Source: an uncultured virus (IMG/VR IMGVR_UViG_3300043446_000670) (taxonomy: Duplodnaviria; Heunggongvirae; Uroviricota; Caudoviricetes). From it: a DNA stretch of 64,000 nucleotides. Shown here piece by piece: positions 11,140 through 63,884 of this stretch. Under the pieces are notes generated by a model. That model had not been told where the DNA came from and made no database searches. It was given only the letters and a program-made list of their open reading frames with translations. A program made the position numbers and the translations under genes. Each line of letters begins with the position of its first letter. Positions within the stretch are counted from its first letter, which is position 1. The stretch lies in IMG/VR virus record IMGVR_UViG_3300043446_000670; one strand, 5' to 3'.

Positions 11140-12639
11140 CTAGTAATAAGCCATGCGACGACGGAAGTATCTAGGTTCATCTTCTTCATCTGAATAAACC
11201 GAGATAAATCCACCTTGTCTAAAACGCAATAGAGCCTGAGAGGATGAGTCCACCAAGTCATCATGGTCGCCGTTAGGGAAGGAAGCCATTTCTTCCATGA
11301 CTTCATCTGCCCATCTTGTCTCTGGGCACCAGACCACGCCTGACGCAAACAGGTCGGATATAGCGTTTACACGCGCAATCTTATCGCTTCCTTTGCCCGG
11401 TGTATATTCGGACAGAGGAATACCGATTTTTCTCATTTCATAGATCAAGGGCGCACCTGCTGCCCTCTTCTCGACCAACAGGGTGTCGGGGTTCCATTCC
11501 CGCCACATGTCAAAAGCCTTCTTTTTTAATTCCGGGAACTCCATCCTTTGTTTAAACGCATCTAAAAGGATGATATTGGGGCGTAGATCCCCGTTTTTGT
11601 TGGGGTGCTGGAAGACTCCCCATGTAGTGCAGGCTGAGTAGTCAGCCCGGTTGTTCTTTTCAAACGCGGTATCCCAGCTTTGGATCACATATTCGCAGGA
11701 GGGTGGGTCTGATTTTTCCCAAATCTGCCATTGATCACGTTTTACAATCGCCCCTTCCTCGGAGGTGGGGTTTTGTTGGTACTGGGCTTCCCATTTGGCA
11801 ACGGGAAGTTCGGCTTTTAGGGCTTCAAGTTCTTCTTTTTTCCAGAAACCGGGCCACAGCGGGGTTCCAGAGGGCAAAATTGCGGGGAAATCGATAACTT
11901 CCCACTCATTTACCCCGTCTTTTTCGGCATTTTTAAGGATTTGCCCGGTCAGATCTCGCTTTGACCACCGGGTCATCACAATAATAATGGCTCCTCCGGG
12001 CTGTAAACGCTGACGAGGACCGGATGTGTACCATTCATAGACCGAATCAAAGACGGCAGGGTTGCCCTGTTTGGCTTCCTGCTCCGAATGGGGGTCATCA
12101 ATAATCAATAGGTCAGCGCCTTTGCCAGTAACTGCACCGCCCACACCAATAGCGAAGTAGTCACCACCCAGATGAGTATTCCAACGACCGGCTGCTTTAG
12201 AGTCTGACGACAGCTTTGTATCAAATACCTTCCCATAACCATCCGATTGAACAAGATTCCTCACCTTTCGACCAAAGCCCACCGCCAGTTCTGCCGTGTG
12301 GGCAGTCTGGATAATCTTCTTTTCCGGGTACTTCCCTAGAAACCACGCGGGCAAGAGATAAGACGCAAATTCTGACTTGGTATGCCGGGGAGGCATGTTG
12401 ATAATCAACCTTTTCAACTGCCCGGATGCAACCCTCTCAAAGGCTTCTGCCATGATCTGATGATGTTTCCCGGAGATAAACGCAGGCCACATCTGGGTCA
12501 CAAAGAAAAGAAACGACTCCTTACACCGCTCTATCCTGTCCATCTCCAACAAAGAAAAAACCTTGTTCCTCTCTGCCTCAGGGATCTTGTCCACAATAGC
12601 AACGTAATCAGCTATTTCTTTTTTTGTAAGCAAAGTCAT
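11140..12639 (-). CDS. terL: Terminase large subunit
   Basis: INMPPRHTKS (Walker A), LLIIDDPH (Walker B), QSWDTA and HDDLVDS (RNase H-like nuclease). Confidence 0.95.
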   Translation of the reverse strand: MTLLTKKEIADYVAIVDKIPEAERNKVFSLLEMDRIERCKESFLFFVTQMWPAFISGKHHQIMAEAFERVASGQLKRLIINMPPRHTKSEFASYLLPAWFLGKYPEKKIIQTAHTAELAVGFGRKVRNLVQSDGYGKVFDTKLSSDSKAAGRWNTHLGGDYFAIGVGGAVTGKGADLLIIDDPHSEQEAKQGNPAVFDSVYEWYTSGPRQRLQPGGAIIIVMTRWSKRDLTGQILKNAEKDGVNEWEVIDFPAILPSGTPLWPGFWKKEELEALKAELPVAKWEAQYQQNPTSEEGAIVKRDQWQIWEKSDPPSCEYVIQSWDTAFEKNNRADYSACTTWGVFQHPNKNGDLRPNIILLDAFKQRMEFPELKKKAFDMWREWNPDTLLVEKRAAGAPLIYEMRKIGIPLSEYTPGKGSDKIARVNAISDLFASGVVWCPETRWADEVMEEMASFPNGDHDDLVDSSSQALLRFRQGGFISVYSDEEDEPRYFRRRMAYY

Positions 12640-12866
12640 AGAGAGGAGATCTCTTTCACTGTCCTATCAAACAGTCGTATCCCGTAGAACTTCTTAGGCT
12701 TCACCTCAAGAATCCCATCCTCTTGAAGTCTTCTGACAATCCTATGAATATTGGACTTAGCCTTCATGCCTACCCCCAAGGCTATCGCCTCGTAAGAAGG
12801 CGACATCCCATGTACCTTGATGTACGCCCGGATGAACTCCAATATCTGCCGTTTTCTTTCAGTCAT
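12636..12866 (-). CDS. Stand-alone LexA-type winged-helix DNA-binding protein
   Basis: MTERKRQILEFI...GMSPSYEAIA...SNIHRIVRRLQEDG resembles the LexA N-terminal domain; no S24 peptidase domain. Confidence 0.8.
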   Translation of the reverse strand: MTERKRQILEFIRAYIKVHGMSPSYEAIALGVGMKAKSNIHRIVRRLQEDGILEVKPKKFYGIRLFDRTVKEISSL

Positions 12867-13013
12867 ATCCACCCCAACACGACTGGACACTCACCATCTT
12901 TCTCGTCGGTAGAGGTGCGGTCTACCTTCTGGCAAATGCCCATGCGTGTTGGTACTCGCTCCACTGCCCTGACCACTGACCAGAGTTAATCAAATTGCAG
13001 CATCTGCTTTCCC

Positions 13014-13046
13014 AACATTTAAACTATAAATGAGAACATTTAAACT
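13014..13046. repeat. Direct repeat AACATTTAAACT x2 (21-bp period)
   Basis: Copies at 13014-13025 and 13035-13046, upstream of the LexA-like gene. Confidence 0.7.
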
Positions 13047-13094
13047 CTCAACATATATATACCCCCCGTCCAAAAACCTTACCTCCTTTTCCTA

Positions 13095-13110
13095 TGTTTC
13101 ACGTGAAACG
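13095..13110. promoter_or_regulatory. parS: Chromosomal-type parS site
   Basis: TGTTTCACGTGAAACG, 15/16 match to consensus TGTTTCACGTGAAACA; perfect 14-bp palindromic core; intergenic. Confidence 0.8.
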
Positions 13111-13296
13111 AGGGGGTGGGGGCAAGACATTGTTCTCATTGGGTGGGGGACATATTTGTTTGTGTGGATTACAGCGTAAGCGGTGACGGGTCCCATCTGT
13201 GCCACAGTGGGGGGTAGGGGTACGGTGGGGTCACGCCCAGCACACACAACGGGTGTCGGGGGCGCAGACTCACAGTGTCGGATCGTTTAAACATGA

Positions 13297-13884
13297 TCAC
13301 TTCACCTTCAATGTCTTCACATTGTCGAGTAGCTTCAGATGCTGCGACAGTTCCCGCTTCAACTGCTCTGGTGCGACTGCCTTGTCGGTCTTCTCTTCGA
13401 TGCCAGTGAATAGCCCAATGGACTTGCCTAGCAGTTCTAATGCTTTTAAACGTGAGCCTTCCTGAGAAGCATCCTTGCTCAGTGATACCAACTTCCGCAA
13501 AACGTACCTTCGAGTGCTTGCGACATCATCCGCAAGGTGTTCTATCGTTTCATCCCATGCGGCGTTGATCATGCTGGCAATGCGTGGATCAGCGGCAAGC
13601 TTGGCTGCATTGCTGCTGACTGCACTGTCTGACATCTGTGTGTTATAGGCGAGACGGTAAGCTTCTCTGCGGCTTTTGCCTGATACAACATGATTCACAA
13701 ATGCCTGTTGTTGGCTTGTAAGTGGTTTGTTTATGTTCTTTATTCTCTTTGGTGGGATTGAAGCTGCCATCCGCTCCGCTTCGCTCTCGAACCCAGGCGC
13801 GTTGTCATCCTGATAACCTTCATCAATAGCACTATTCGCCTCTTCCAGTGCCGCTAGATACTCGTCCTGACTGGTCTTTTTCAT
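13297..13884 (-). CDS. terS: Terminase small subunit
   Basis: LTSQQQAFV...EAYRLAY...AAKL HTH and RLKALELLGKSIGLF C-terminal motif. Confidence 0.8.
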   Translation of the reverse strand: MKKTSQDEYLAALEEANSAIDEGYQDDNAPGFESEAERMAASIPPKRIKNINKPLTSQQQAFVNHVVSGKSRREAYRLAYNTQMSDSAVSSNAAKLAADPRIASMINAAWDETIEHLADDVASTRRYVLRKLVSLSKDASQEGSRLKALELLGKSIGLFTGIEEKTDKAVAPEQLKRELSQHLKLLDNVKTLKVK

Positions 13885-13955: not shown

Positions 13956-14147
13956 TTATCCACAGAGTTATACACAGGTGCAAGCATGGCAATGCATTTG
14001 TTTTTGTTGTCAACCATGCAAATGCCCCTGAGACTCGTCTATAGACCCTCTGAGACGTTTTTTCTCTTTAGGCTACCTACCCCTCACCCGCTTCGCGTTC
14101 GTTGAACCTGCGAGGTTTTTTTGTTCTTTGATAACAAGTTATCCACA
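13956..14147 (+). promoter_or_regulatory. Cluster of DnaA boxes
   Basis: TTATCCACA 13956-13964, TTATACACA 13968-13976, TTATCCACA 14139-14147, all in the divergent intergenic region. Confidence 0.7.
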
Positions 14148-14318: not shown

Positions 14319-14648
14319 ATGCAACTGCACCTTTACACGCGACTGACGCACGACTATGCACTTGGCTGGGATCACTTGGACGAGTCCGAATACACAGGCA
14401 CTGTCAAAGTACTTGCACCGCGCAAACTGTCCGACGATGGTATCGACGGTCATACATCGATCACTCGCGTGATCGCTCCGGCTGCACTGCGCGGCACTGA
14501 CCTGACCGCTGCCATTGAAGACACCATGACCACAAGCCGGTGCCGTCATGAACATGACTGCTGCGGCTGCGCCACGACGAATGCTTACGCGAAGCGTGTT
14601 TCAGCGCGTGAGTATTCAGTCTACTTGTCAACCTATTACAACGTCTGA
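14319..14648 (+). CDS. Hypothetical early protein with Cys/His cluster
   Basis: CRHEHDCCGC motif; first gene of the plus-strand block. Confidence 0.65.
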   Translation: MQLHLYTRLTHDYALGWDHLDESEYTGTVKVLAPRKLSDDGIDGHTSITRVIAPAALRGTDLTAAIEDTMTTSRCRHEHDCCGCATTNAYAKRVSAREYSVYLSTYYNV

Positions 14649-14655
14649 GGTTATC

Positions 14656-15243
14656 ATGTTTACAACACGCGAAGAGTGGTTGACTGCGGCGGTCTCTGAA
14701 TTGCGTCCGCTGTTTGATCTGTGGTCTGCACCTGTACCTGCCAAGGTGCGCGTCACCTGCGGCTTCCCCAGCAATGCGCGGCGATCCGGTGCCATCGGCG
14801 AATGCTGGGCTGATACTGCGTCTGCTGATAAAACATTCGAGATTCTGATCTCGCCGACTCTGGATGATCCCCGCCGGGTGTTTGACGTTCTAGTTCATGA
14901 GTTATGCCACTCACTACCGGGCGCACTGAATCACGGCACAACCTTTCAAAAATGGGCGGCTGCAATGCACCTTGTACCTGCTGGATCGGGAAAACAGGCG
15001 TGGAAAGCCACTGTCGCTGCTGCTGGATTCGATGATGCTTATGGCGCGATCATCACTGGTTTGGGTGCGTATCCTCACGCAAGCTTGTCTCTCACTACCC
15101 GCAAAAAACAGGCAACCCGGATGCTCAAGGCAATCTGCCCTAGTTGCAAATACACCATCCGATTAACCGCGAAGTGGGCGAATGTTGGCTTGCCTACCTG
15201 CTGCTGCGGTGATCTTTTCAATCTGACATCTGAGGGTGAATAA
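14656..15243 (+). CDS. SprT-like zinc metallopeptidase with C-terminal zinc ribbon
   Basis: VLVHELCH (HExxH), downstream HG..F, CPSC...CCCG; SD GAGG before ATG 14656. Confidence 0.75.
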   Translation: MFTTREEWLTAAVSELRPLFDLWSAPVPAKVRVTCGFPSNARRSGAIGECWADTASADKTFEILISPTLDDPRRVFDVLVHELCHSLPGALNHGTTFQKWAAAMHLVPAGSGKQAWKATVAAAGFDDAYGAIITGLGAYPHASLSLTTRKKQATRMLKAICPSCKYTIRLTAKWANVGLPTCCCGDLFNLTSEGE

Positions 15244-15245
15244 TT

Positions 15246-16724
15246 ATGAGTAAAACCACATACGAGGCAGTGCTACAGCAACCGCTGGCAACCGTTAAGG
15301 CTGCATATGAGCAAATGTTGGGCGGCACGTTCTCCACAAAACAGGCGGCGGCGCAAGACCTTACCAATGCTGTTAACGCAGGGCGCATCACGCTGGCGCA
15401 GATCAGGGCGGCTATCCCGAACCACCCGCCGGGTGCACCTGTCGCATCGCAGATGCCCGGCGAAGTGAATGACCTAATAAAAACCTCGCTTGCCTTGGAT
15501 CAGGGTTTGCGTAACGTGATCGGGCGCGTCGATGCACTGACCGACAATGTCGGGCGCGTTAGCACCGGGCTAGATTCTGTGGTGCGTGGCATTAATCAAT
15601 TACAGGCTGACTCAGTGGCGCGGGATGCTGATCTGGCTGATCGACTGTCGATTGTCGAAAGGGCTGCGCGTCACAATTCCAACCTTGACGCTGGCGAGAT
15701 CGACGCTGCGATTAATGCTGCTGTTGCTGAGGGTTTCGGTGCGTTTAAACGTAAGATCGAAAAGGCAGGGTTAGAACAGGCGGCGGCTGATGCTGTATCT
15801 GTCCGGGTCATTGAGCGTAAACCTGCTCTGGATGTTTTTGGGGTCGATGTTATCGATGCACAGGGTAATGCGGTGATGGTCGATCTGTATGACCACCCGG
15901 CTGCCCCGGCGGTCGATCCTAATTTCATTTGGACTGAGACCATCCTGCGCCACTTGCTGTTGTCCCAGATGACAGGCGAAAACCTCTGGTTCGGCGGTGC
16001 CAAGGGCGCAGGTAAGACTGAGACTGCGCGTCAATTTGCTGCGCGTACCGGGCGCGGTTTCACCCGGATCAACTTCCACAAGTACACCACTGCCGACGAG
16101 TATCTGGGCAGCACTGGTTTGCAGAATGGCAATACCGCTTTTGAGGATGGTGATTTTCTGAAAGCCTATTCCTGCCCCAGCACCGTCATTCTGTTGGATG
16201 AGATCAGCAACGCCGCACCGGGCGAATTGGCACCGTTGAATGCCCTGCTTGAGCCGAATACCGCCGTCACAATTGGCGGCAAGGTACGCACCAAGGCTGC
16301 TGGCGTGATCGTGATCGCAGCCGACAATACTCTGACCACTGGTGATCAGTCCGGACGATATGCCGGGACTCAGGAGATGAACTCCGCTCTGGCTGATCGC
16401 TTTGCGCGGGTCGTGCGGTTCACCAATTTGTCGATAAAGGATGAGGTCGATGCGGTCGTGCGCCACACGGGCTGCGATCCCCGGCTGGCGCAAAAGATCG
16501 TTTCCTGCGTCGATGTCGTGCGCCAGAAGGTCGCAACTGGCGAGGTAGTGGACGCACCATCGATCCGACAAATCGTCGCGTTTGTCCGCGCACTGCCCTT
16601 GCTGACCATCGATCAGGCATGGGCAACTTGTATCGGCAACCGTCAGCCTGACGAGTCGGCACTGGCTTTGCAGGCTATCCGGGCTGCCTGTTTAAACGAC
16701 ACTGAGATTAATAAGCTTATTTAA
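15246..16724 (+). CDS. MoxR/CbbQ/CobS-like AAA+ ATPase
   Basis: GAKGAGKT (Walker A), ILLDE (Walker B), NSALADRF (arginine finger), SIRQ. Confidence 0.85.
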   Translation: MSKTTYEAVLQQPLATVKAAYEQMLGGTFSTKQAAAQDLTNAVNAGRITLAQIRAAIPNHPPGAPVASQMPGEVNDLIKTSLALDQGLRNVIGRVDALTDNVGRVSTGLDSVVRGINQLQADSVARDADLADRLSIVERAARHNSNLDAGEIDAAINAAVAEGFGAFKRKIEKAGLEQAAADAVSVRVIERKPALDVFGVDVIDAQGNAVMVDLYDHPAAPAVDPNFIWTETILRHLLLSQMTGENLWFGGAKGAGKTETARQFAARTGRGFTRINFHKYTTADEYLGSTGLQNGNTAFEDGDFLKAYSCPSTVILLDEISNAAPGELAPLNALLEPNTAVTIGGKVRTKAAGVIVIAADNTLTTGDQSGRYAGTQEMNSALADRFARVVRFTNLSIKDEVDAVVRHTGCDPRLAQKIVSCVDVVRQKVATGEVVDAPSIRQIVAFVRALPLLTIDQAWATCIGNRQPDESALALQAIRAACLNDTEINKLI

Positions 16725-30089: not shown

Positions 30090-30406
30090 TCTATAGGAAC
30101 AAGAGACTTCTCGAAGCCGTCAGGCATTCACCATGTCAGCACTGCGGTATAGAAGATGGCACTGTCGTGGCGGCTCACAGCAATCAGCTTAGGGATGGGA
30201 AGGGCAAAGGCATTAAAGCCCATGACTACAGAATCGCAGCCCTATGCCATAAATGCCATTACGAAATAGATCAGGGAAGTAAACTCTCCAAGCAGGAGCG
30301 TTTAAACGTATGGGAAGAAGCCCACAGAAAGACCGTGGGCTGGCTCTTCGACAACAGCATCCTTATTCTGAGACCATCTTCTTCAGATTCTGCATATTCT
30401 GAGTAA
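30074..30406 (+). CDS. DUF1364/DUF968-like zinc-binding nuclease-fold protein
   Basis: CQHC...VVAAHSN...GKGIKAHD...LCHKCH. Confidence 0.7.
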   Translation: MEREVIYRNKRLLEAVRHSPCQHCGIEDGTVVAAHSNQLRDGKGKGIKAHDYRIAALCHKCHYEIDQGSKLSKQERLNVWEEAHRKTVGWLFDNSILILRPSSSDSAYSE

Positions 30407-33400
30407 GCTGGTTTTCCATTTTGGTAATGTCTAGGATCGCGTCGCGCTTCTGATCACCGCTCATCTGGGAGTTGCGGATCATGTTCTTCATGTCCCGTAG
30501 CTCCTTCATCTGCTTCTCAAGGTCTTGGATGTAATCCTTGGTTGCCAATAGTTTCATATTGTCAGTCATGTACTCACCCATGTCCTTGTAGTTCATGGAT
30601 TTTTCCAAGAGATTGATGGTGCGGGTAACCTCGTCCACCGAATCCTTCATCTCATAGAAGGCAGTGACGGTGCCCCGTGCTTCCGGGTCAAGGGCAAACC
30701 GTTTGATGATGGGCATCTGCTCCAGACGCTTGGAGACCTTGGGAGAGTCGCCGTTGAAGTCCATGACCATATCCAAGACATCCACCGCATATCCACCCAT
30801 CGTGCCTGTGTAGCCCTTGAACAGATGGTCAATCTGGATGGGGGAAAGCCCTGCCATTTTACCTATCCATTGAGCAAACATCGATGTTCCGGGACCGACT
30901 TGGAACTCCGGGGCAACATCCTTTAAACCCTGAGGAACGATGTCCCGACCGGTGAAGAAGGAATGATTGGTAACCACTTCCACAAGCGGCAGGGCAGTCT
31001 GTGGGATAGGGTTGAACGCAAGGGTGGAGGAAAGCTGCCGTCCCATTGACCGGGCAAAGTCTTTGCCTGTGTCGTCCCCAAAGGTGACCCCCATGATCCG
31101 TTCGGGGATGACTTTAAACAGGATACCCACCTCAAACGGGATAGGGATCTTGACACCCAAGGATGGAAACAGCCAGTAGTTGTCCCGTGTTTCCTGCTCC
31201 TGTTTCTTGTACTCATCGTCATCATGGGTGAGCGCCCAGTACATACAGGACAGGGCGAACATGGTCATGCCGCGAACGATAAACGCTTTCTGGACTGCCT
31301 TGGGGTCATTCCCCATTCTTCCAAAGGCGGCGCGGTACAGGACATCCAGACCCTGAATACGGGCGTTTAGGAACGGCACGGCGGCTGTCAGGACGCGGAT
31401 TACAGCAGAGCTTCCCTTGCGGTTGAAGTTCATGACCTCCATCGCCCTAAACAGGGCTTCTGCCTCGTTCCCGGTCTCAGCTAGGGTGTTCTTGTACACC
31501 TCCATACGGGTGGCTGCGTCAGAGGCTGTGGTGCCCTTTTCAAGGGCTTGCCAGACACCGGTGAAGTAATCCGTGCCTTTCTTGATCCCAGCCTTGATCC
31601 GCATTGCCTCTTCCATCGTCTTGCCTGACTGCTCGACGTTCTGGGAAAACTCGTAACCGCCGATCAGACCAGCGTTTAAAAGGGCAGCGTACTCCGGTGA
31701 GGAGTTGGATATTGCCTTACCGAAATTGGCAATGGTTGAGACCACAGGCTTCATGTTTGCCCCTGAGGTCACATATGCCGACATGGAATCCCTGACCATG
31801 TTTGCCAGCATAAAGCCGGGGTCTTTGGTCACAAGGTTTCTCAGGACATTTGCCGGGGTGGACAATAAGCCAAGGAACGGCAGGTCTGGCAGGTTCAGGC
31901 TCTTGATCGCATTGATGAACAATGGATCATGGCTCTGGTAGTACGTCAGCTTGCCGTTCTCTAAGGTCGTGAAGACATCGGGACCTGAAGATACATGGTT
32001 TAAACGTGTAGCCTGCCCAATCTGCGTTGCCACATTTGCTGCCCGTTGTGCCGCGACATTCTTGATCCCCATCTGGATGGAGGACTGAGTATTCCTGACA
32101 ACGGTCTCAAGGAAGTCTGCCAGAGGAGCTTCCCCGCCCTTTAATTTTTTAGGACCTTTGACCCCGGAGATTGAGGCGAACAGGTTCGGACCAATGGTCT
32201 TCTCCCCGTCAAACTGGCGGTAGAAGGGGACATAGTCGCTGTACCGGGTGAACTCGTCAGCCTTGTTCTTGGACAGGACTCCAGTGTCCACGAGGAACTT
32301 AACAAGACCGTTATTGAACTTGATCCATTCCTTCTGGATCTGGTCAAACTCAGGATATTGCTGTCCAATCTTTTGGGCGCGAGCAATCATGGCGGGGGTG
32401 TAAACCTCTTCCCTGCCATCTGCCAGCAGTCTCTTGCCGCGCTTGGCTCCAGCCCAGTATTGGTAAAGCTGGTAGATCGTGGGATCTCCATACTTGGCGA
32501 GCGGGGCAAAGATGGCAACAGGACCCTTGACCGTATTGTTCAAATTGCTGACCGTGGTTACCCCGTTCTTATAAACAGGGACACCTCCTACTCGGTCATG
32601 AACACCAAGGGCAGATGCGGTAAGACCCGCGCCAAGATCAGACATCAAGGCAGCAGCTTCAGCACTGGAATCTGCCATGAGCTTTGCGCCACCCATCTTT
32701 TGCACAAGCGCCCTGTCGTATTCACCCAGTCGGTTGTACCGGTTTAAAGCCTTCTCGCGGAAGTAGGAGAAGGACTCCGGGGAAAGAGCATTGGTTATGC
32801 GCTCAACAAAACCTTGCTCAACACGAGCCGTAGTCACCCTGTCCACATCAGCCATGATGGCAGGGTCGGTGGTGTTACGCAGGTTGTAACGAATGTCAGG
32901 GTTGAACTGATCAAACGTGCCTACATTGCCAGTGGCAGACTTTAACTGCTCTGGATTGTAAACAGCAAGGTTCTTCCTGCCGCCTTCTTTGACGTAAAAA
33001 CCGTCGAAGCCAGCGGCTTTAATAAGCTCTTGAATTCGGGGCGTTTCTATTGTTTCCCATGTGCCAGTAATAATTTCATTTATTGGTAAAGCATAGGTTG
33101 ACTCAGCTTCTATTGCCCTGATGTGTTCAGGGTTACTAAAATCAAACGGGTTCTGTGCGCTAACGTAAACAGGAAGGATGTTTGCGCGGGATGCCAAATT
33201 ATTACGAGCTATTTCTAGATACTCATCAAGAGGATCGGTGCCTTTTGCCTTTGCAACTTTTGCTCCCTCTTTTTTAAATTGATCTATTTGTTTCTCAGTA
33301 AAAAATTCCCTTGGGTTACGCTGCATGTAGTTTTCAGACATTTCAGCAAAACTTCCAGCAAACTTAGGATCGTCAGTTACAAATATTGCATTAGCTTGTT

Positions 33401-36400
33401 TAGGTTTAAACTCAGTAATGTCTTGCGCAGTCCCGTGGTACATGACCTTGGGCGTACCGTCTTCGTTGACTATCTTCGATTCGCCAAACCACTTTTTAAA
33501 TTGTGGCGTGTCGCGCAAAGAATAGCGTTTCATGGGAGTTTGACTAATGTCTATTCCCTCTTTCGCTACCAAAGCAATGCCAGTTTCATCAAACAAACCA
33601 TCGTAGCCAAGTGCAGTCAATGACTTTGCTAGTGAGTCTGTCATATCTCCAGAGTAACCAACCTTCCAGTGGTCAACAACAGGGCTTACATCATGCGCTC
33701 TACGGGCGGCTTGCCACAAGCCATCACCAGCTTTAACTTTTTTGTAATCGGGAAGCTGTAGCGCTTTGTTTAAAGTATTTGCTTCTGCCTGAGTAAGTTT
33801 TTTGTTGCGGTTTAACAAAGAATAATCTTGGTCTGTGATGGCAGAGAAAACATCCCCCTCCATGCGTAACAAACCTTTCTCTTCATCATACTTAGCTCGA
33901 AGCGTATCTATTTCTGATTTTGAGTGACCTGTTGCAAGATCTTCACCACCAAACCAAATTAAGTTACCCTCGTCCATCATGCCGCCACCAGACTTATATG
34001 GCGGTCTTGCTAGTAATTTTTTACCACCAGCTTTGATTTCTTCAGCTCTAGTTTGATGCGCTCCGTGATATATCCTTGTGCCTTTTTTAAGAATATAAGT
34101 TTCTCCCTTTGGAAGATCTCTTAGGCTAAATTTCTTTACAGCAATTGGAATTGTTTTGGTTAGCTCAGGCTTTGGCGGTTCTGCCGTTTTAAATTGATCC
34201 TGATCTGGGGCAACGACGGTGTCTCCATCAGTCTTTGGATCATATTTAACAAAGAAGCCATCGGTCTTCTCTGTGGCGTTCTTCTCGCTTAATGTACCTG
34301 CCTTGTTGCGTAAACCAACAATGACCCCTGCACCCTCAGACTCTTCCTTCTCTCTGCTGTACTGGTCTAAGTAACGGGCATCGTACAGATCACCATCCAA
34401 GATGCGATAGGTCTTGCCGCTTTTCTCATCTTTCAAAAACTTGGGCAGGGCAGACTTGCTTGAGAAAGCCATCGCCACATTGAAACCATTGTTTAAACGG
34501 TCTTTCACTGTTTCCCAGTTGTGGTCGTACCTGCCAGCCTTGTTCTTGAAGAACACGGGCTTGCCGTCAACAATCTGACCAAATCCTGTGGAGGAATAAG
34601 TCAGGTGATGGTTGGGCGCAATAGAGTCGCTGTTTATCTTTGTGTAGTCATAGAACATCACATCCTTATTGCCGTCTATAACGCCACGGAACATGGACGG
34701 CTTAAAGTCCGATGTAACATTTAAACGCACAGCGGGTGCGTAGATGTCTTTGGCGATGTTCTCCATCTTCCCGGTTTCCGCGTTCTTCTTGCGGACAGTC
34801 GGAGAAGCAGACCATTTTCTCAGGGAGTCAATCTCTGACTGTAGGATGACCGCAAAAGCTTCTGGGTTCACAATCAATGCTTCAGTCTTTAGGTACTGAA
34901 CCATCCTTGCCCCTGCGCGGAAAGAACTTTTGTTGATGCTGCCAACGTCTTCAGCCGCCGCGCCGCCAAACATGAAGTTCCCGCCAGATGTCTCGCCCAA
35001 GCAAAGACCTTCACAAATGGCAGAACGAGGGCAGGTAGAAGTCTTTTCAGTAATCTTCTGGGCAGAAGCCAAACCTAAACCCTGAGAAGCAACAGGCAAC
35101 CCATCGTAGTTAAGGTTGTAATCACCAATACGAGTCTTCTCTAGCTTACCGTTCTCCGTTAATAAAGAACCAACATTATGTTCCCGTTTCAACAGTTTTC
35201 TTGCATTGGTTACTAAAGTTTTTCTTTCAGCAACGGTGGCAGCTTTGTATTGTTTTATGGCATCCGTAATACGTTTCTCATGGTCGTCATAACTAAAAGA
35301 CTTGGCAATAGCATCCGACCTAGCCTTCTGGATGGAATGCTGCTTCATCTTCTTGTTGAAGTACTCCCCTTGAGCAACGGGGATGTACACATCCACCCTG
35401 CCATCGTCGTACATTCTGTCTACCTGCAACATGTCTGGGGTGACATACACCAAGACGGTGCTGCCATCCACATCCTGTTCCATGTCCCCCTTCTCAACCA
35501 AGATCTTGGCTCCAGAGGATTCATTGGTTAAATGGATTCGGTTCCGACCCTGCGCCGGGATAACCTTGGTACTGTTAATCGCCAAAGACTCATCTTTGGT
35601 GGTGTGGTAGTACAGGGTGATCGTCCCGTCCTTATTGATGGGAAGATTTAACGCCGGATCAAAGGACAGATGCTTCTCAGGGTTGTATTTCTGTAACGAG
35701 TATTTAACCTCATCGATAGGTACGTTTAAACGTCCTTGTGATGTGTAAGGCAAGAATCCGTCCGTGGCGTACATGTCCAAGGCTTCTTCACGTTCTTGGG
35801 GGGTAGCCCGCCAAGCATCGTTTTGATCAAACTTAGGCTCGGATGGTTTAACAACTTGCTTGGTCGGTTTAAGCGCACCGCGCTCAACTTTGCCAAAGAT
35901 GTCTTCGGAGGTCTGGAACCCAGCCCCGGCAAAAGCATTTTTCAGCGCCTCAAAGAACAGCTTTAAACGCTTCAAGATGGCAGACATCATCCCCGGAGGG
36001 GCTTTAGTCATGTCAAAGTCGCCAAAGGCATCTGCGATGGCTTCTTCGATAATGGCGTTCTGGTCTCCCTTGTAGACATTCATGTATGCGTCATACCGGG
36101 ACTGCTGACCAGCCTCTAGGGGGTCACCATTAATGTTTCTTTGCCTGAGGTAGGTGTCTATCCACTTGGTCTTAGCTTCTCTCTCCAACGCCTTCCATTG
36201 CTGGGGCGTGAAGAATCCCAACTCTTTCAAGGCATGGATGGACTCATGGCGCAGGGTTCTGATAGGGTTAGCCGAATCAAGGGCGATCTTGATGACAGAC
36301 TTGGAATACTCCCCCTCTGCCTTCATGTCCTTCTCAAGTTCTAGCGCGACATCCTTTAGACCAAACCGGTCAAGCAACGCACGTAGAGGTGGCTTTACCT

Positions 36401-38858
36401 TGTTCTCAAGGACTTGGCTTACGGAGGCGTATTCTTCTTTGCGCTTCTCTTCTGCCTTTCTTTGGATCTCTTCCTCTGCCCTGCGCTTTAGGGTGCGGCG
36501 ACCCTTGGCTTGGGTTAGGGCTTGGATCTCTTCCTCAGGCAGACCTTGGACAATTGCCCGCTCGGCTTCGTCCCGCGATTTAAATACCTGAACCGCCTTG
36601 TTGTCCTTGAACAGGGTATAGCCCTTGCCCTTGACCCGTTTAGCCTTCGCCTTGATTACAGAGACAGGAGCCTTCTCCGGATCTACGCGTTCAAGCTGTT
36701 TGTTTAAACGATCAAGATTCTCAGCAACCTTGACACGGATTTTCCCAAGGGTGGCTTGGGCTTTGTCGTACTCAATGCCGGTCTGCCCAGCAAGTTGCAT
36801 GTTGGTTAACTTCTCTTCAGCCTTTTGCAGGGTCGTTTCGTTCTGCTCAATCCGGTTGTTGATTTCCTTGACCAGCCTACCCTGACCCTTGACGTACTCC
36901 TGAGACCGGGCATTAGCCTCTTCCTCGGTCGCATACACCTCAGGCAAGGTGATGTCGCCCATCTGGATTTGGTAGCCCTCTGGCTTCTCGCCCCGCTCAA
37001 ACATGCCTTCTTGGATCTTGTAGCCCTTTGGCAGGACTGCGGCGCTCGTAGGAGGCGATATTTGGTCTCCCTGCCTATCCACATCCCCACGACGAACAGC
37101 CTCGTCCAGAATCGATTTGGCGTAGGCATCCTCTTTTAGTCCGGTGGAGAGGCGAATATCCGACAAGGCTTCTGCGGTCAGGATGGGCTTGTCACCCATC
37201 GTCTTGTCCAAAGACTTAATCGCAGCGTTGTATTGCTGATCTGTAAACCTTATGGCATTCGTTCCTGTCTCCAGCTCCGCCTTCTCCGGCAGGGCTTGGA
37301 TAGATTTAAACGCAGCAAATAGCTGCGGCTGGGACATGGAGTTCAGATCCCCCGTCCCGGTGGTTCGGGTCAGGAAGTCCGTGAAAGCTTGGTCTGTGGG
37401 GATCTGTTTAGCCTGCGCTTGGTCAATCACATCCCGTGCGGTTAAACGCTCACCCTGATACCCGGTACGGGAGTTAAGGATGGTGTCTATCTGTTTTTGC
37501 TCTTCTGCCGGGTTTACACCGGGCATCGCATCAGCAATGTCCTCGATGGAGTAGCTCTTAATCGGGGGCAGACCCACCGTCTTGCGGTACTCATCAATAT
37601 GTTGATTCAGGTAAGGGTCAATCCCCTCTGCCTGTAGATCTTCCTTGGAGATGTCCCCCAATGGATTACGAATAGGATGGACGTTGGTCGGAGCCTTGAT
37701 TTCTACCGGCGGGGCAGACATGACTGCCTGTTCCTCGGCTTGCTGTTTGGCTTCCTGTTCTTGACGCAGGGTTTCTTGCTCTTGTGCAATCTCCTGATCC
37801 AGCTTTGCAGCAGCCTCGTCCCGCTCTCTTTGTTTATCAATCTCATGTTCCCGGCGAAGCTGGGATAGCTGAAGCGGAGAGACTGCCGCACCTGTTAGGG
37901 CACCCATCAAGGCATCCCGTGCGGTTGCGCCAGCAACGCCGGAGAAGGTTGAGGTATCTATCCCTGCATTCTGTAGAGCGACGTTCTCTGTGATTTGACC
38001 CACGCCACCTTGAATGCCTTCTGGAATAGATTCTTCCAAAGCACTGCGACCAGCAGTCCTTATGGCGCTAGGCTGGGTCAAAGGACGGGTAGCTTGTTTA
38101 GCTTTGGCGGTCTTTCCAAGGATGGATTCCACACCGGTAACAGAATCCAACATGCCAGCGGCAGTGCTGCCCATGATTCCGGGGGCATTGGAGCTTAGAT
38201 ATTCTTGGGCTTTAACGGCTTGGGCTTCAGCCTCTGCACGAGACAAGCCCTTCTCATCCATTAGCTTCTGGGTGACGCTGTCAAAGATATTGCCCTTGGC
38301 TTCACCGGCTCCCTGTAGGGCACCAATAACAAGCTTGGCGGTCAGGGTGACTGCACTAGCAATTGCCAAAGGAGCAGACGCAACCATCGCGGCAAGACCA
38401 GCGCCAATCGCAGGGAGAGAAGAAGCAACACCAGACACGGTAGCCTGAACAGGCGCTTCTGCGACAGACCCTAGACCTGCCATGATCTCTGCGCCGATAC
38501 CTTGCTCACCTGCGCGGCTCATGATCTCTTCACGGCGGCGCATCTCTTCCAAACGCTCCGGCGACATCCCTGCCTGAATCTCAGCAGCGTACTCCCTAAG
38601 ACCTCTAGCAGGAGCAGATTCAGCACCAAACGCAGACGCAATCGACCCAGCAGAACCAACAAGACTTGCCAACCCGGCTCTAGCCGTGTCTTTTAAAGAC
38701 ATCGGCGCTCTGGGCTGATCCTTGAGTTCTTCTGTGGTGAAACCAGCATAAGGATGCTGGGCTACGACTGCGCGGATAACATCATCTTGAGAAGCTCCAT
38801 CAGGACCCTCAATACGATAAGTTTTTCCGTCAGGTGCTTTAATCTGATAGAGCGCCAT
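30363..38858 (-). CDS. Giant polyvalent virion protein: zincin peptidase, ART-like domains, gp88-like domain, LPD38-like C-terminus
   Basis: HESIH...EEAIAD; YYHTT..IHLT; CP..C..C/RLNVTSD/FYDYTK/DGD..D.R; IYHG; FKKWFG...MYHGT...GFDG...PEQLKS; IPIPFEVG. Confidence 0.8.
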   Translation of the reverse strand: MALYQIKAPDGKTYRIEGPDGASQDDVIRAVVAQHPYAGFTTEELKDQPRAPMSLKDTARAGLASLVGSAGSIASAFGAESAPARGLREYAAEIQAGMSPERLEEMRRREEIMSRAGEQGIGAEIMAGLGSVAEAPVQATVSGVASSLPAIGAGLAAMVASAPLAIASAVTLTAKLVIGALQGAGEAKGNIFDSVTQKLMDEKGLSRAEAEAQAVKAQEYLSSNAPGIMGSTAAGMLDSVTGVESILGKTAKAKQATRPLTQPSAIRTAGRSALEESIPEGIQGGVGQITENVALQNAGIDTSTFSGVAGATARDALMGALTGAAVSPLQLSQLRREHEIDKQRERDEAAAKLDQEIAQEQETLRQEQEAKQQAEEQAVMSAPPVEIKAPTNVHPIRNPLGDISKEDLQAEGIDPYLNQHIDEYRKTVGLPPIKSYSIEDIADAMPGVNPAEEQKQIDTILNSRTGYQGERLTARDVIDQAQAKQIPTDQAFTDFLTRTTGTGDLNSMSQPQLFAAFKSIQALPEKAELETGTNAIRFTDQQYNAAIKSLDKTMGDKPILTAEALSDIRLSTGLKEDAYAKSILDEAVRRGDVDRQGDQISPPTSAAVLPKGYKIQEGMFERGEKPEGYQIQMGDITLPEVYATEEEANARSQEYVKGQGRLVKEINNRIEQNETTLQKAEEKLTNMQLAGQTGIEYDKAQATLGKIRVKVAENLDRLNKQLERVDPEKAPVSVIKAKAKRVKGKGYTLFKDNKAVQVFKSRDEAERAIVQGLPEEEIQALTQAKGRRTLKRRAEEEIQRKAEEKRKEEYASVSQVLENKVKPPLRALLDRFGLKDVALELEKDMKAEGEYSKSVIKIALDSANPIRTLRHESIHALKELGFFTPQQWKALEREAKTKWIDTYLRQRNINGDPLEAGQQSRYDAYMNVYKGDQNAIIEEAIADAFGDFDMTKAPPGMMSAILKRLKLFFEALKNAFAGAGFQTSEDIFGKVERGALKPTKQVVKPSEPKFDQNDAWRATPQEREEALDMYATDGFLPYTSQGRLNVPIDEVKYSLQKYNPEKHLSFDPALNLPINKDGTITLYYHTTKDESLAINSTKVIPAQGRNRIHLTNESSGAKILVEKGDMEQDVDGSTVLVYVTPDMLQVDRMYDDGRVDVYIPVAQGEYFNKKMKQHSIQKARSDAIAKSFSYDDHEKRITDAIKQYKAATVAERKTLVTNARKLLKREHNVGSLLTENGKLEKTRIGDYNLNYDGLPVASQGLGLASAQKITEKTSTCPRSAICEGLCLGETSGGNFMFGGAAAEDVGSINKSSFRAGARMVQYLKTEALIVNPEAFAVILQSEIDSLRKWSASPTVRKKNAETGKMENIAKDIYAPAVRLNVTSDFKPSMFRGVIDGNKDVMFYDYTKINSDSIAPNHHLTYSSTGFGQIVDGKPVFFKNKAGRYDHNWETVKDRLNNGFNVAMAFSSKSALPKFLKDEKSGKTYRILDGDLYDARYLDQYSREKEESEGAGVIVGLRNKAGTLSEKNATEKTDGFFVKYDPKTDGDTVVAPDQDQFKTAEPPKPELTKTIPIAVKKFSLRDLPKGETYILKKGTRIYHGAHQTRAEEIKAGGKKLLARPPYKSGGGMMDEGNLIWFGGEDLATGHSKSEIDTLRAKYDEEKGLLRMEGDVFSAITDQDYSLLNRNKKLTQAEANTLNKALQLPDYKKVKAGDGLWQAARRAHDVSPVVDHWKVGYSGDMTDSLAKSLTALGYDGLFDETGIALVAKEGIDISQTPMKRYSLRDTPQFKKWFGESKIVNEDGTPKVMYHGTAQDITEFKPKQANAIFVTDDPKFAGSFAEMSENYMQRNPREFFTEKQIDQFKKEGAKVAKAKGTDPLDEYLEIARNNLASRANILPVYVSAQNPFDFSNPEHIRAIEAESTYALPINEIITGTWETIETPRIQELIKAAGFDGFYVKEGGRKNLAVYNPEQLKSATGNVGTFDQFNPDIRYNLRNTTDPAIMADVDRVTTARVEQGFVERITNALSPESFSYFREKALNRYNRLGEYDRALVQKMGGAKLMADSSAEAAALMSDLGAGLTASALGVHDRVGGVPVYKNGVTTVSNLNNTVKGPVAIFAPLAKYGDPTIYQLYQYWAGAKRGKRLLADGREEVYTPAMIARAQKIGQQYPEFDQIQKEWIKFNNGLVKFLVDTGVLSKNKADEFTRYSDYVPFYRQFDGEKTIGPNLFASISGVKGPKKLKGGEAPLADFLETVVRNTQSSIQMGIKNVAAQRAANVATQIGQATRLNHVSSGPDVFTTLENGKLTYYQSHDPLFINAIKSLNLPDLPFLGLLSTPANVLRNLVTKDPGFMLANMVRDSMSAYVTSGANMKPVVSTIANFGKAISNSSPEYAALLNAGLIGGYEFSQNVEQSGKTMEEAMRIKAGIKKGTDYFTGVWQALEKGTTASDAATRMEVYKNTLAETGNEAEALFRAMEVMNFNRKGSSAVIRVLTAAVPFLNARIQGLDVLYRAAFGRMGNDPKAVQKAFIVRGMTMFALSCMYWALTHDDDEYKKQEQETRDNYWLFPSLGVKIPIPFEVGILFKVIPERIMGVTFGDDTGKDFARSMGRQLSSTLAFNPIPQTALPLVEVVTNHSFFTGRDIVPQGLKDVAPEFQVGPGTSMFAQWIGKMAGLSPIQIDHLFKGYTGTMGGYAVDVLDMVMDFNGDSPKVSKRLEQMPIIKRFALDPEARGTVTAFYEMKDSVDEVTRTINLLEKSMNYKDMGEYMTDNMKLLATKDYIQDLEKQMKELRDMKNMIRNSQMSGDQKRDAILDITKMENQLTQNMQNLKKMVSE

Positions 38859-62952: not shown

Positions 62953-63884
62953 CAGTAATAACTCCCACCAATGAAAGTTGCCCTTGGGACAAGTCTCAGA
63001 GCAGCTTTTTCCCGGTCTTCCCCTGCCGCCAGATTGAACTGTTCGTCATAGACAGCCTTCAACATATCCAGCCTTGATGCCATTTCTGGGATCTTCATGG
63101 CGATGTAATAAGCCAATCCTGCGACTAGGCATGGGTAGAACCTGAAGTTCATATCTGCCGTTTGGATACCATTACCCGCATCCTGCACCCGGCGAAGTCT
63201 CCAGTAGGCAAGCGTGTAGGTCTGGGAGCCATCAGGCGTAGGCCAGACAGTAACGGCTGGAAGCTGCGGCGCATAGACCGTTGTGCCAGTGGTATGGGGT
63301 GCGGCGGTCGTGTTGTTCTGACCACGGAATATATTCATCAGGACGTTGCCAGAAATATAACCATAGTAGATGTCTTCACTGTCGATCCGGATGTATCCAC
63401 TTGAAGCTAAGTTATTTGTGGAACTTAGGGTGATCGTGTTGTCTGTGGCAGTAAGGTTGCCAACCAAGGTAGCCCCGGCAGGACCAACCTGACCAGACAA
63501 CCGCTGTATCCAGATCTGAATTGGACGAGCTTGAGTGAGCTTATTTGGGATTGTTGCGTAGGTCGATGCGCTGATGCGGCTGATGTTTAAATCAGTTTGC
63601 AGGTTCTGCTGGTTGGCGTTTGTACGAATTACATGCTCCAACAGGTCAATCGTGTCTATAGGTAGTGGGTATGTGTTTAAACCTTGCTCGAACGTAATCG
63701 TCCCTTGCTCGATTGTCCACATGTTGATACCACGGTTTGCCCACTCAATCGTCAAAAGGTTCATGGAACGACGAGCAGTCTTGAGATCGTAACCGCTGCG
63801 CATCTCGCGCCCAGCCCTCTCCCACGCCTCCTCGGCGATCTCCGTGAACTCCATATTGAAAAGGGTTGAGCCGGTAGTAGTCAT
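62952..63884 (-). CDS. Head-tail connector-like protein with inserted beta domain
   Basis: EEAWERAG...ARRSMNLL..EWANRG...WPTPD...AGLAYY. Confidence 0.7.
   Translation of the reverse strand: MTTTGSTLFNMEFTEIAEEAWERAGREMRSGYDLKTARRSMNLLTIEWANRGINMWTIEQGTITFEQGLNTYPLPIDTIDLLEHVIRTNANQQNLQTDLNISRISASTYATIPNKLTQARPIQIWIQRLSGQVGPAGATLVGNLTATDNTITLSSTNNLASSGYIRIDSEDIYYGYISGNVLMNIFRGQNNTTAAPHTTGTTVYAPQLPAVTVWPTPDGSQTYTLAYWRLRRVQDAGNGIQTADMNFRFYPCLVAGLAYYIAMKIPEMASRLDMLKAVYDEQFNLAAGEDREKAALRLVPRATFIGGSYY

Follow-up and report, generated by a model that had tools for sequence, protein, structure and literature searches.

Plasmid-like prophages such as P1 and N15 encode their own ParA, ParB and initiator and carry their own parS, and promoter silencing from parS has reportedly been described in P1. 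The use of a host parS by a phage is also already known. The Bacillus phages phi29 and Nf carry the host parS, which is read by the host Spo0J, and in phi29 five such sites together with Spo0J are used for spore entry, or entrapment (both according to PMC2731898). ParB-CTP loads at parS and spreads from it, a single site being sufficient for many clamps (PMC12704722). On chromosome II of Vibrio cholerae, ParB spreading silences promoters near parS; in those measurements, the amount of ParB2 was 10-14 times the normal one (PMC3688505). In a preprint on a Staphylococcus phage, ParB is encoded by the phage, and no parS was found.

We analysed a stretch of 64,000 nucleotides from an uncultured virus (hereafter, the window), in which the parS-type palindrome TGTTTCACGTGAAACG occupies positions 13095..13110 (no strand assigned). 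It agrees with the parS consensus, taken in the 16-bp form printed in PMC7383237, at 15 of 16 positions with an exact 14-bp core, and hence has the palindrome of a chromosomal-type parS. This is the only match to the consensus in the window at up to three mismatches (0.34 matches are expected by chance at that looseness), and a match to the core with at most one mismatch is expected at 0.02 per window (2 of 100 shuffles). The 16-mer is placed in the gap between terS and the gene of a LexA-type HTH protein, approximately 190 bp beyond the end of terS. It is non-coding; the short reading frame running over it is broken by a frame shift in a close relative, L007. In a river metagenome DNA run, the contig spanning parS differs at four positions, none of them within the site. 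Thus, two claims of the earlier note, that a parS is situated in the non-coding gap between terS and the LexA-like gene and that its core is beyond chance, are borne out.

The window is probably a nearly whole genome of a lytic-looking freshwater podovirus. The near-identical record G001 links window position 1 to position 63884 with approximately 40 bp between them, hence little of the circular genome map is likely to be missing; the junction of the window itself carries at least one extra small ORF. The records carrying the region are freshwater and river metagenomes. The large terminase subunit gene terL (11140..12639, minus strand) encodes a protein 53.6% identical to that of HTVC027P, the range for HTVC023P, HTVC027P, 023Pt_psg01 and DSL-LC04 being 51-58%, and the major capsid protein is 63-73% identical to those of the same four and of MinM2. 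The small subunit gene terS occupies 13297..13884 on the minus strand. The HTH gene (12636..12866, minus strand) encodes a 76-aa protein with a LexA-type DNA-binding domain (Pfam LexA_DNA_bind, E=5.7e-12; NCBIfam lexA, positions 4-75 of 203) and without the protease domain; it is the first gene of the terL operon and overlaps terL. Also encoded are a primase-helicase, Sak, an exonuclease, RusA, an endolysin and an Rz-like spanin.

None of the window ORFs searched matched a ParA, ParB, integrase or DNA polymerase family (71 ORFs with Pfam and PHROGs, 52 ORFs with NCBIfam; of the ORFs shorter than 80 aa, only the HTH gene was included). Thus, the window does not contain the parA and parB genes that a complete ParABS system has on the same replicon, in agreement with what had been stated from the first inspection. 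The same was observed in the complete parS-positive relative G006 (58,261 bp, with terminal repeats), where none of 61 ORFs matched ParA, ParB or integrase, and ParB was not found in the five partial relatives examined. The features of a plasmid-like prophage (own partition genes, an initiator, a resident replicon) were not found either: the window has no such genes, and a TerL scan of 185,579 genomes matched one short MAG contig, which fits a lytic life.

Several further observations concern the gene content and composition. No tRNA was found in the window. A 2831-aa polyvalent protein with LPD38, ART-PolyVal and GP88-like domains is encoded at 30363-38858, a weak SprT-like match is encoded at 14548-15243, and G006 has a beta-ketoacyl synthase gene (L452:17151-18272). 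The palindrome GTTTAAAC is the most over-represented 8-mer of the window, with 32 sites from 3021 to 63675 where approximately 1-3 are expected; in the relatives there are 440 copies in 700 kb versus five of the reversed word, with 0-1 per 11 kb in five named relatives. This word was considered as a host fingerprint and rejected, as none of five genomes checked was enriched in it.

Relatives were sampled as 80 viral loci by the window TerL and 80 metagenome loci by the G006 TerL, each set being the best 80 of approximately 590 matches, hence the sample is uneven. The presence of parS was tallied in 104 loci, window included, with a complete gap from terS to the HTH gene (57 of 161 loci were dropped as incomplete). 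All ten relatives at 96-100% TerL identity whose contigs span the spot retain parS, so that the conservation at the same locus in close relatives, which the earlier note had proposed as a check, was indeed observed; in the closest subclade, 27 of 448 other 14-bp windows of the gap are equally conserved. Over the whole sample, 29 of 104 complete gaps contain parS with at most two mismatches, which corresponds to 23 of 85 distinct TerL sequences; the remaining 75 gaps lack it, and hence the site is dispensable. At the same threshold it was not found in HTVC023P, 023Pt_psg01, DSL-LC04 and MinM2, nor in four of the five complete IMG/VR relatives.

Mapped on a FastTree tree, the gains and losses of parS amount to eight parsimony changes, compared to approximately 20 for shuffled labels, as expected when kin share states. 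The window subclade (support 1.0) is nested among parS-negative lineages. In a second, deeper group the presence and loss of parS are scattered, and the position shared within this second clade may be one inherited event. The site also recurs in lineages at 72-76% TerL identity with differing flanks. When the best match was taken in each of 58 gaps, it differed from parS at 0-1 positions or else at five or more, with none intermediate.

The position of parS is strict. All 43 matches in 1.13 Mb (14 in 700 kb and 29 in 431 kb) are localized between terS and terL, three of the 29 being two-mismatch matches within the HTH gene, and in the relatives' loci scanned the gap upstream of terS never contains parS. 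There is one copy in the window and in G006, and three in L481/L482. Among 28 distinct non-coding sites, 21 of 24 substitutions affect the outer bases or the T5/A12 pair, with the same variants in Burkholderiales; hence the phage site varies where host copies vary. We conclude from this comparison of sequences that parS is real, selected and fixed in place in the terS-HTH control block. The best reading is that it is optional: within a clade of lytic freshwater podoviruses in which no partition protein was found, some lineages have retained it.

On the host side, the 14-bp core with the same alternative bases is present in 189 of 201 Burkholderiales genomes, mostly in two copies, compared to 9 of 201 for the reversed control (the genomes were sampled from the order of a Burkholderiaceae MAG, and the tally includes the unpublished G042 and G178, which enter no other result). 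The motif is located 2-4 kb from parB in all five Burkholderiales genomes checked, and in G031 and G033 the exact 16-mer of the window is 3.5-3.6 kb from parB. These counts and distances show that, in an order of plausible hosts, the word is a chromosomal parS of the working type. As the same word is parS in many phyla, its occurrence in Burkholderiales cannot name the host of the phage, and the order is a plausible freshwater diderm host, no more. The Rz-like spanin suggests a Gram-negative host. Neither the TerL genome scan nor the best matches of the endolysin and the primase yielded a host; a DNA search of 401 Burkholderiales genomes gave two short gene matches, no CRISPR array and no host.

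In the control block, read along the minus strand, the terS stop is followed by a GAGAACA box and a C-run, then by parS and a G-run with TATAT, and finally by a predicted promoter, HTH and terL. The predicted sigma-70 promoter (TTGAGA-17-TATAGT, a consensus match at 13023..13051, minus strand) is directed toward HTH-terL-portal, its -35 box beginning 43 bp after parS. Such a promoter is not above chance by itself (one found, compared to 2.3 in shuffles); it is kept in L007, L010 and L053. In L028 and L481/L482, parS plus one base constitutes the exact 17-bp spacer of a 10/12 promoter match, and in L023 and L035 parS abuts a predicted -35. Many parS-bearing relatives have no promoter match of at least 9/12 nearby. 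In most carriers, parS is situated 155-410 bp beyond terS, with a GAACGTT box and a run of C or G close by, and its distance to terL varies. The C-rich and G-rich flanks fold around parS (z=-2.69, 2 of 200 shuffles), and no Rfam family was matched. A general link between parS and promoters across unrelated phages was also considered and turned out to be weak: in an unbiased viral set the two overlap in 22 of 143 cases, compared to 7-15 for shifted positions and 8-16 for shuffles; this modest excess disappears at a stricter promoter score.

The GAGAACA box (13131..13137, minus strand) has a second copy at 13032-13038 on the opposite strand, within the promoter spacer, and is probably the form that the GAACGTT(C/T) box of the wider clade takes in the window subclade. 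Of the parS-positive lineages, 16 of 24 have the GAACGTT(C/T) palindrome, as do 38 of 63 parS-negative ones; its density in the gap (94 in 84 kb) is approximately 47 times that downstream (11 in 460 kb). Given this enrichment, the two forms of the box would constitute a candidate operator belonging to the phage HTH itself.

The G-run with TATAT (13053..13067, minus strand), a loose pattern of which is present in 49 of 58 complete gaps, occurs with or without parS and is a candidate packaging or genome-end feature. In 16 of 72 loci the contig ends 150-750 bp upstream of terL, compared to 4 of 72 for the equivalent downstream interval (p=0.007), and three contigs from separate records begin within 1 bp of one another; such a cluster fits a genome end, but also a variable insert in the terS-HTH gap. 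The contigs of L046 and L003 start at the G-run block, their first bases repeating a short piece of the downstream gap sequence in inverted orientation; this may be an artefact of assembly or a structure of the end. Between the promoter and HTH (the region of window positions 12890-12960; L001, L005, L008, L009, L053) there is a variable point of insertion with short repeats at its borders, GTCGTGTTG and ACACGCATG among them, and the insert of L001 is tRNA-like by eye.

Upstream of terS there are three 9-mers (at 13956, 13968 and 14139, spanning 13956..14147, plus strand), which resemble DnaA boxes; in the window they are 850 bp from parS. Two of them overlap a possible terS promoter. The cluster, which many of L012-L078 also have, is a candidate origin using the host DnaA or a regulator site. 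Two or more boxes are present in 32 of 59 lineages scored, comprising 4 of 16 parS-positive and 28 of 43 parS-negative ones. Since the boxes and parS are uncoupled across lineages, a mini-oriC module uniting them was rejected.

Outside the clade, a scan of IMG/VR yielded the 14-bp core in at least 134 loci, compared to four matches in the whole IMG/VR for a palindrome of the same composition, and among the matches listed the full T...A flanks are present in 118 of 165 distinct sites. Among the carriers are phi29-like phages, microviruses and other tailed phages. In 9 of 71 examined loci parS is at most 1.5 kb upstream of a terminase gene, IMG/VR itself favouring contigs with such genes. The perfect 16-mer is present in the cultured microvirus SpV4 of Spiroplasma (L544, record positions 693-708) and in the small Clostridium phage CP1 (L545), directly after the endolysin. 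Perfect parS also adjoin replication genes of three uncultured microviruses (L098, L103, L146), and L128 and L190, distantly related phages, have five perfect parS each upstream of terL.

The match in HTVC027P (16412-16427) is of a different kind, as it is inside an unannotated 123-codon ORF (L227:734-1105, MN698241.1), where it encodes FHVKH; relatives of this ORF are found in 71 viral loci. In the relatives, the Val before Lys is GTG in 18 of 23 cases, compared to the 2% background, and the full parS core is kept in approximately 10 of 22 distinct FHVKH contexts, with kin sharing codons. Possibly, parS is here overlaid on a gene, FHVKH often being spelled as the parS core with otherwise rare codons. 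Since its match is within a coding frame, HTVC027P was set aside as a cultured model.

Compared to the described systems, the site would work like the phi29 parS and is not part of a complete ParABS or plasmid-prophage system. As in phi29, a host-type parS is carried by a lytic phage, and no phage ParB was detected in the window; however, phi29 has five sites used in spore entrapment, whereas this clade usually has one, as do the window and G006, and it is fixed in the terS-terL control block. The Rz-like spanin of the window points to a Gram-negative host. The palindrome and the tolerated variants are the same as in chromosomal ParABS, but the phage site has no parA or parB in cis and is not coupled to the DnaA-type boxes, a candidate origin, across relatives. 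With P1 and N15 the locus shares a parS on a phage genome, whereas the partition genes and the initiator were not found here. By analogy with Vibrio chromosome II and P1, a parS near a promoter could repress it; there the ParB is the replicon's own, while the virus would borrow that of the host.

We consider 13095-13110 to be, with good probability, a docking or loading site for the host chromosomal ParB. This claim, already made in the earlier note, is well supported by comparison, through the conservation in close relatives, the distant recurrence and the host-like variants; the 75 relatives lacking the site weigh against it. Of the uses proposed there (segregation, marking the genome as self for SMC, titration of ParB), all stand as rivals, but none needs a fixed position, and this points to a local role, as does the confinement of parS to one control block, close to the predicted late promoter and the probable end of the genome. 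From the known behaviour of ParB, we infer that host ParB-CTP would load at the phage parS and slide onto the adjoining DNA. Tentatively, as parS is on or beside the promoter of the HTH-terL-portal operon, ParB may then hold down late transcription, or make the packaging site less accessible, for as long as the phage DNA is low-copy. With only about two parS on the chromosome of a candidate host, the block would be lifted when replication has raised the number of phage genomes above what the available ParB can serve. In view of the fixed position, we prefer this local effect on the late promoter or packaging, ranking it ahead of positioning or partition and of titration or self-marking.

Alternatively, host ParB could dock in order to position or partition the phage DNA, by tethering it to the origin region or by passage to daughter cells in a stalled or carrier-state infection, the location being merely a tolerated non-coding spot near the genome end. 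This has the direct precedent of phi29 with Spo0J (PMC2731898), and one parS would suffice, as it loads many clamps (PMC12704722); the phage, with no DNA polymerase detected, leans on the host machinery, and DnaA-type boxes are close to the site. We regard it as rather doubtful, however, since there is neither integrase nor initiator, the single short MAG contig gives no sign of stable carriage, the boxes are uncoupled from parS, and the gap upstream of terS never has it. Less likely still, parS would be a decoy, the phage genomes soaking up ParB and thereby disturbing segregation, SMC loading and division, or marking themselves as self against an SMC-type defence. Tens of phage genomes would indeed exceed the two or so host sites, and there are three copies in L481/L482 and five near terL in the unrelated L128 and L190; on the other hand, most carriers have a single copy, and a decoy would not require that all matches fall in one interval.

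The remaining alternatives do not involve host ParB. The palindrome could be read by a phage protein (the LexA-type HTH or TerS), or be a packaging-site or RNA structure, its likeness to parS being convergence; it is indeed upstream of a DNA-binding gene, just past terS, between flanks that fold around it. We consider this very unlikely, given that all 104 gaps scored have HTH and TerS but only 29 have parS, the GAACGTT(C/T) palindrome is a separate one, found in lineages with and without parS, no Rfam family was matched, and phages of unrelated families, SpV4 and CP1 among them, contain the very same word. Finally, the absence of parS from most relatives and the equally conserved gap windows of the closest subclade would agree with a chance match or a neutral relic of host DNA, but such an origin is hardly credible in view of the recurrence at 72-76% TerL identity with different flanks, the host-like substitution spectrum and the strong excess over the control palindrome.

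In the literature searched, mostly open-access text, we found no account of a host-type parS in phages of non-sporulating hosts, and a word search of the pelagiphage papers PMC9599517 and PMC12753301 gave no mention of ParB; in the searchable literature, the use of host parS by a phage is described only for spore entrapment in phi29 and Nf. To this, the present analysis adds the mapped gain and loss of parS, its strict position and the cases where it forms a promoter spacer. The clade provides natural pairs with and without parS, e.g., L028 versus L025/L026, the two parS-as-spacer cases suit a clean reporter test, and SpV4 and Clostridium phage CP1, cultured phages with perfect sites, are in vivo models of the wider habit. 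As a more speculative extension, which we hold to be rather improbable as a whole, the host ParB-CTP clamp might serve as a DNA copy counter in lytic phages of non-sporulating aquatic bacteria, delaying late genes or packaging from a parS on or next to the packaging-operon promoter, at the likely genome end, until ParB is exhausted, with lineages gaining or losing the switch on changing hosts. If the docking of ParB is confirmed, an abundant clade of freshwater phages would be borrowing the segregation clamp of the host for another purpose, possibly for the timing of late genes or packaging.
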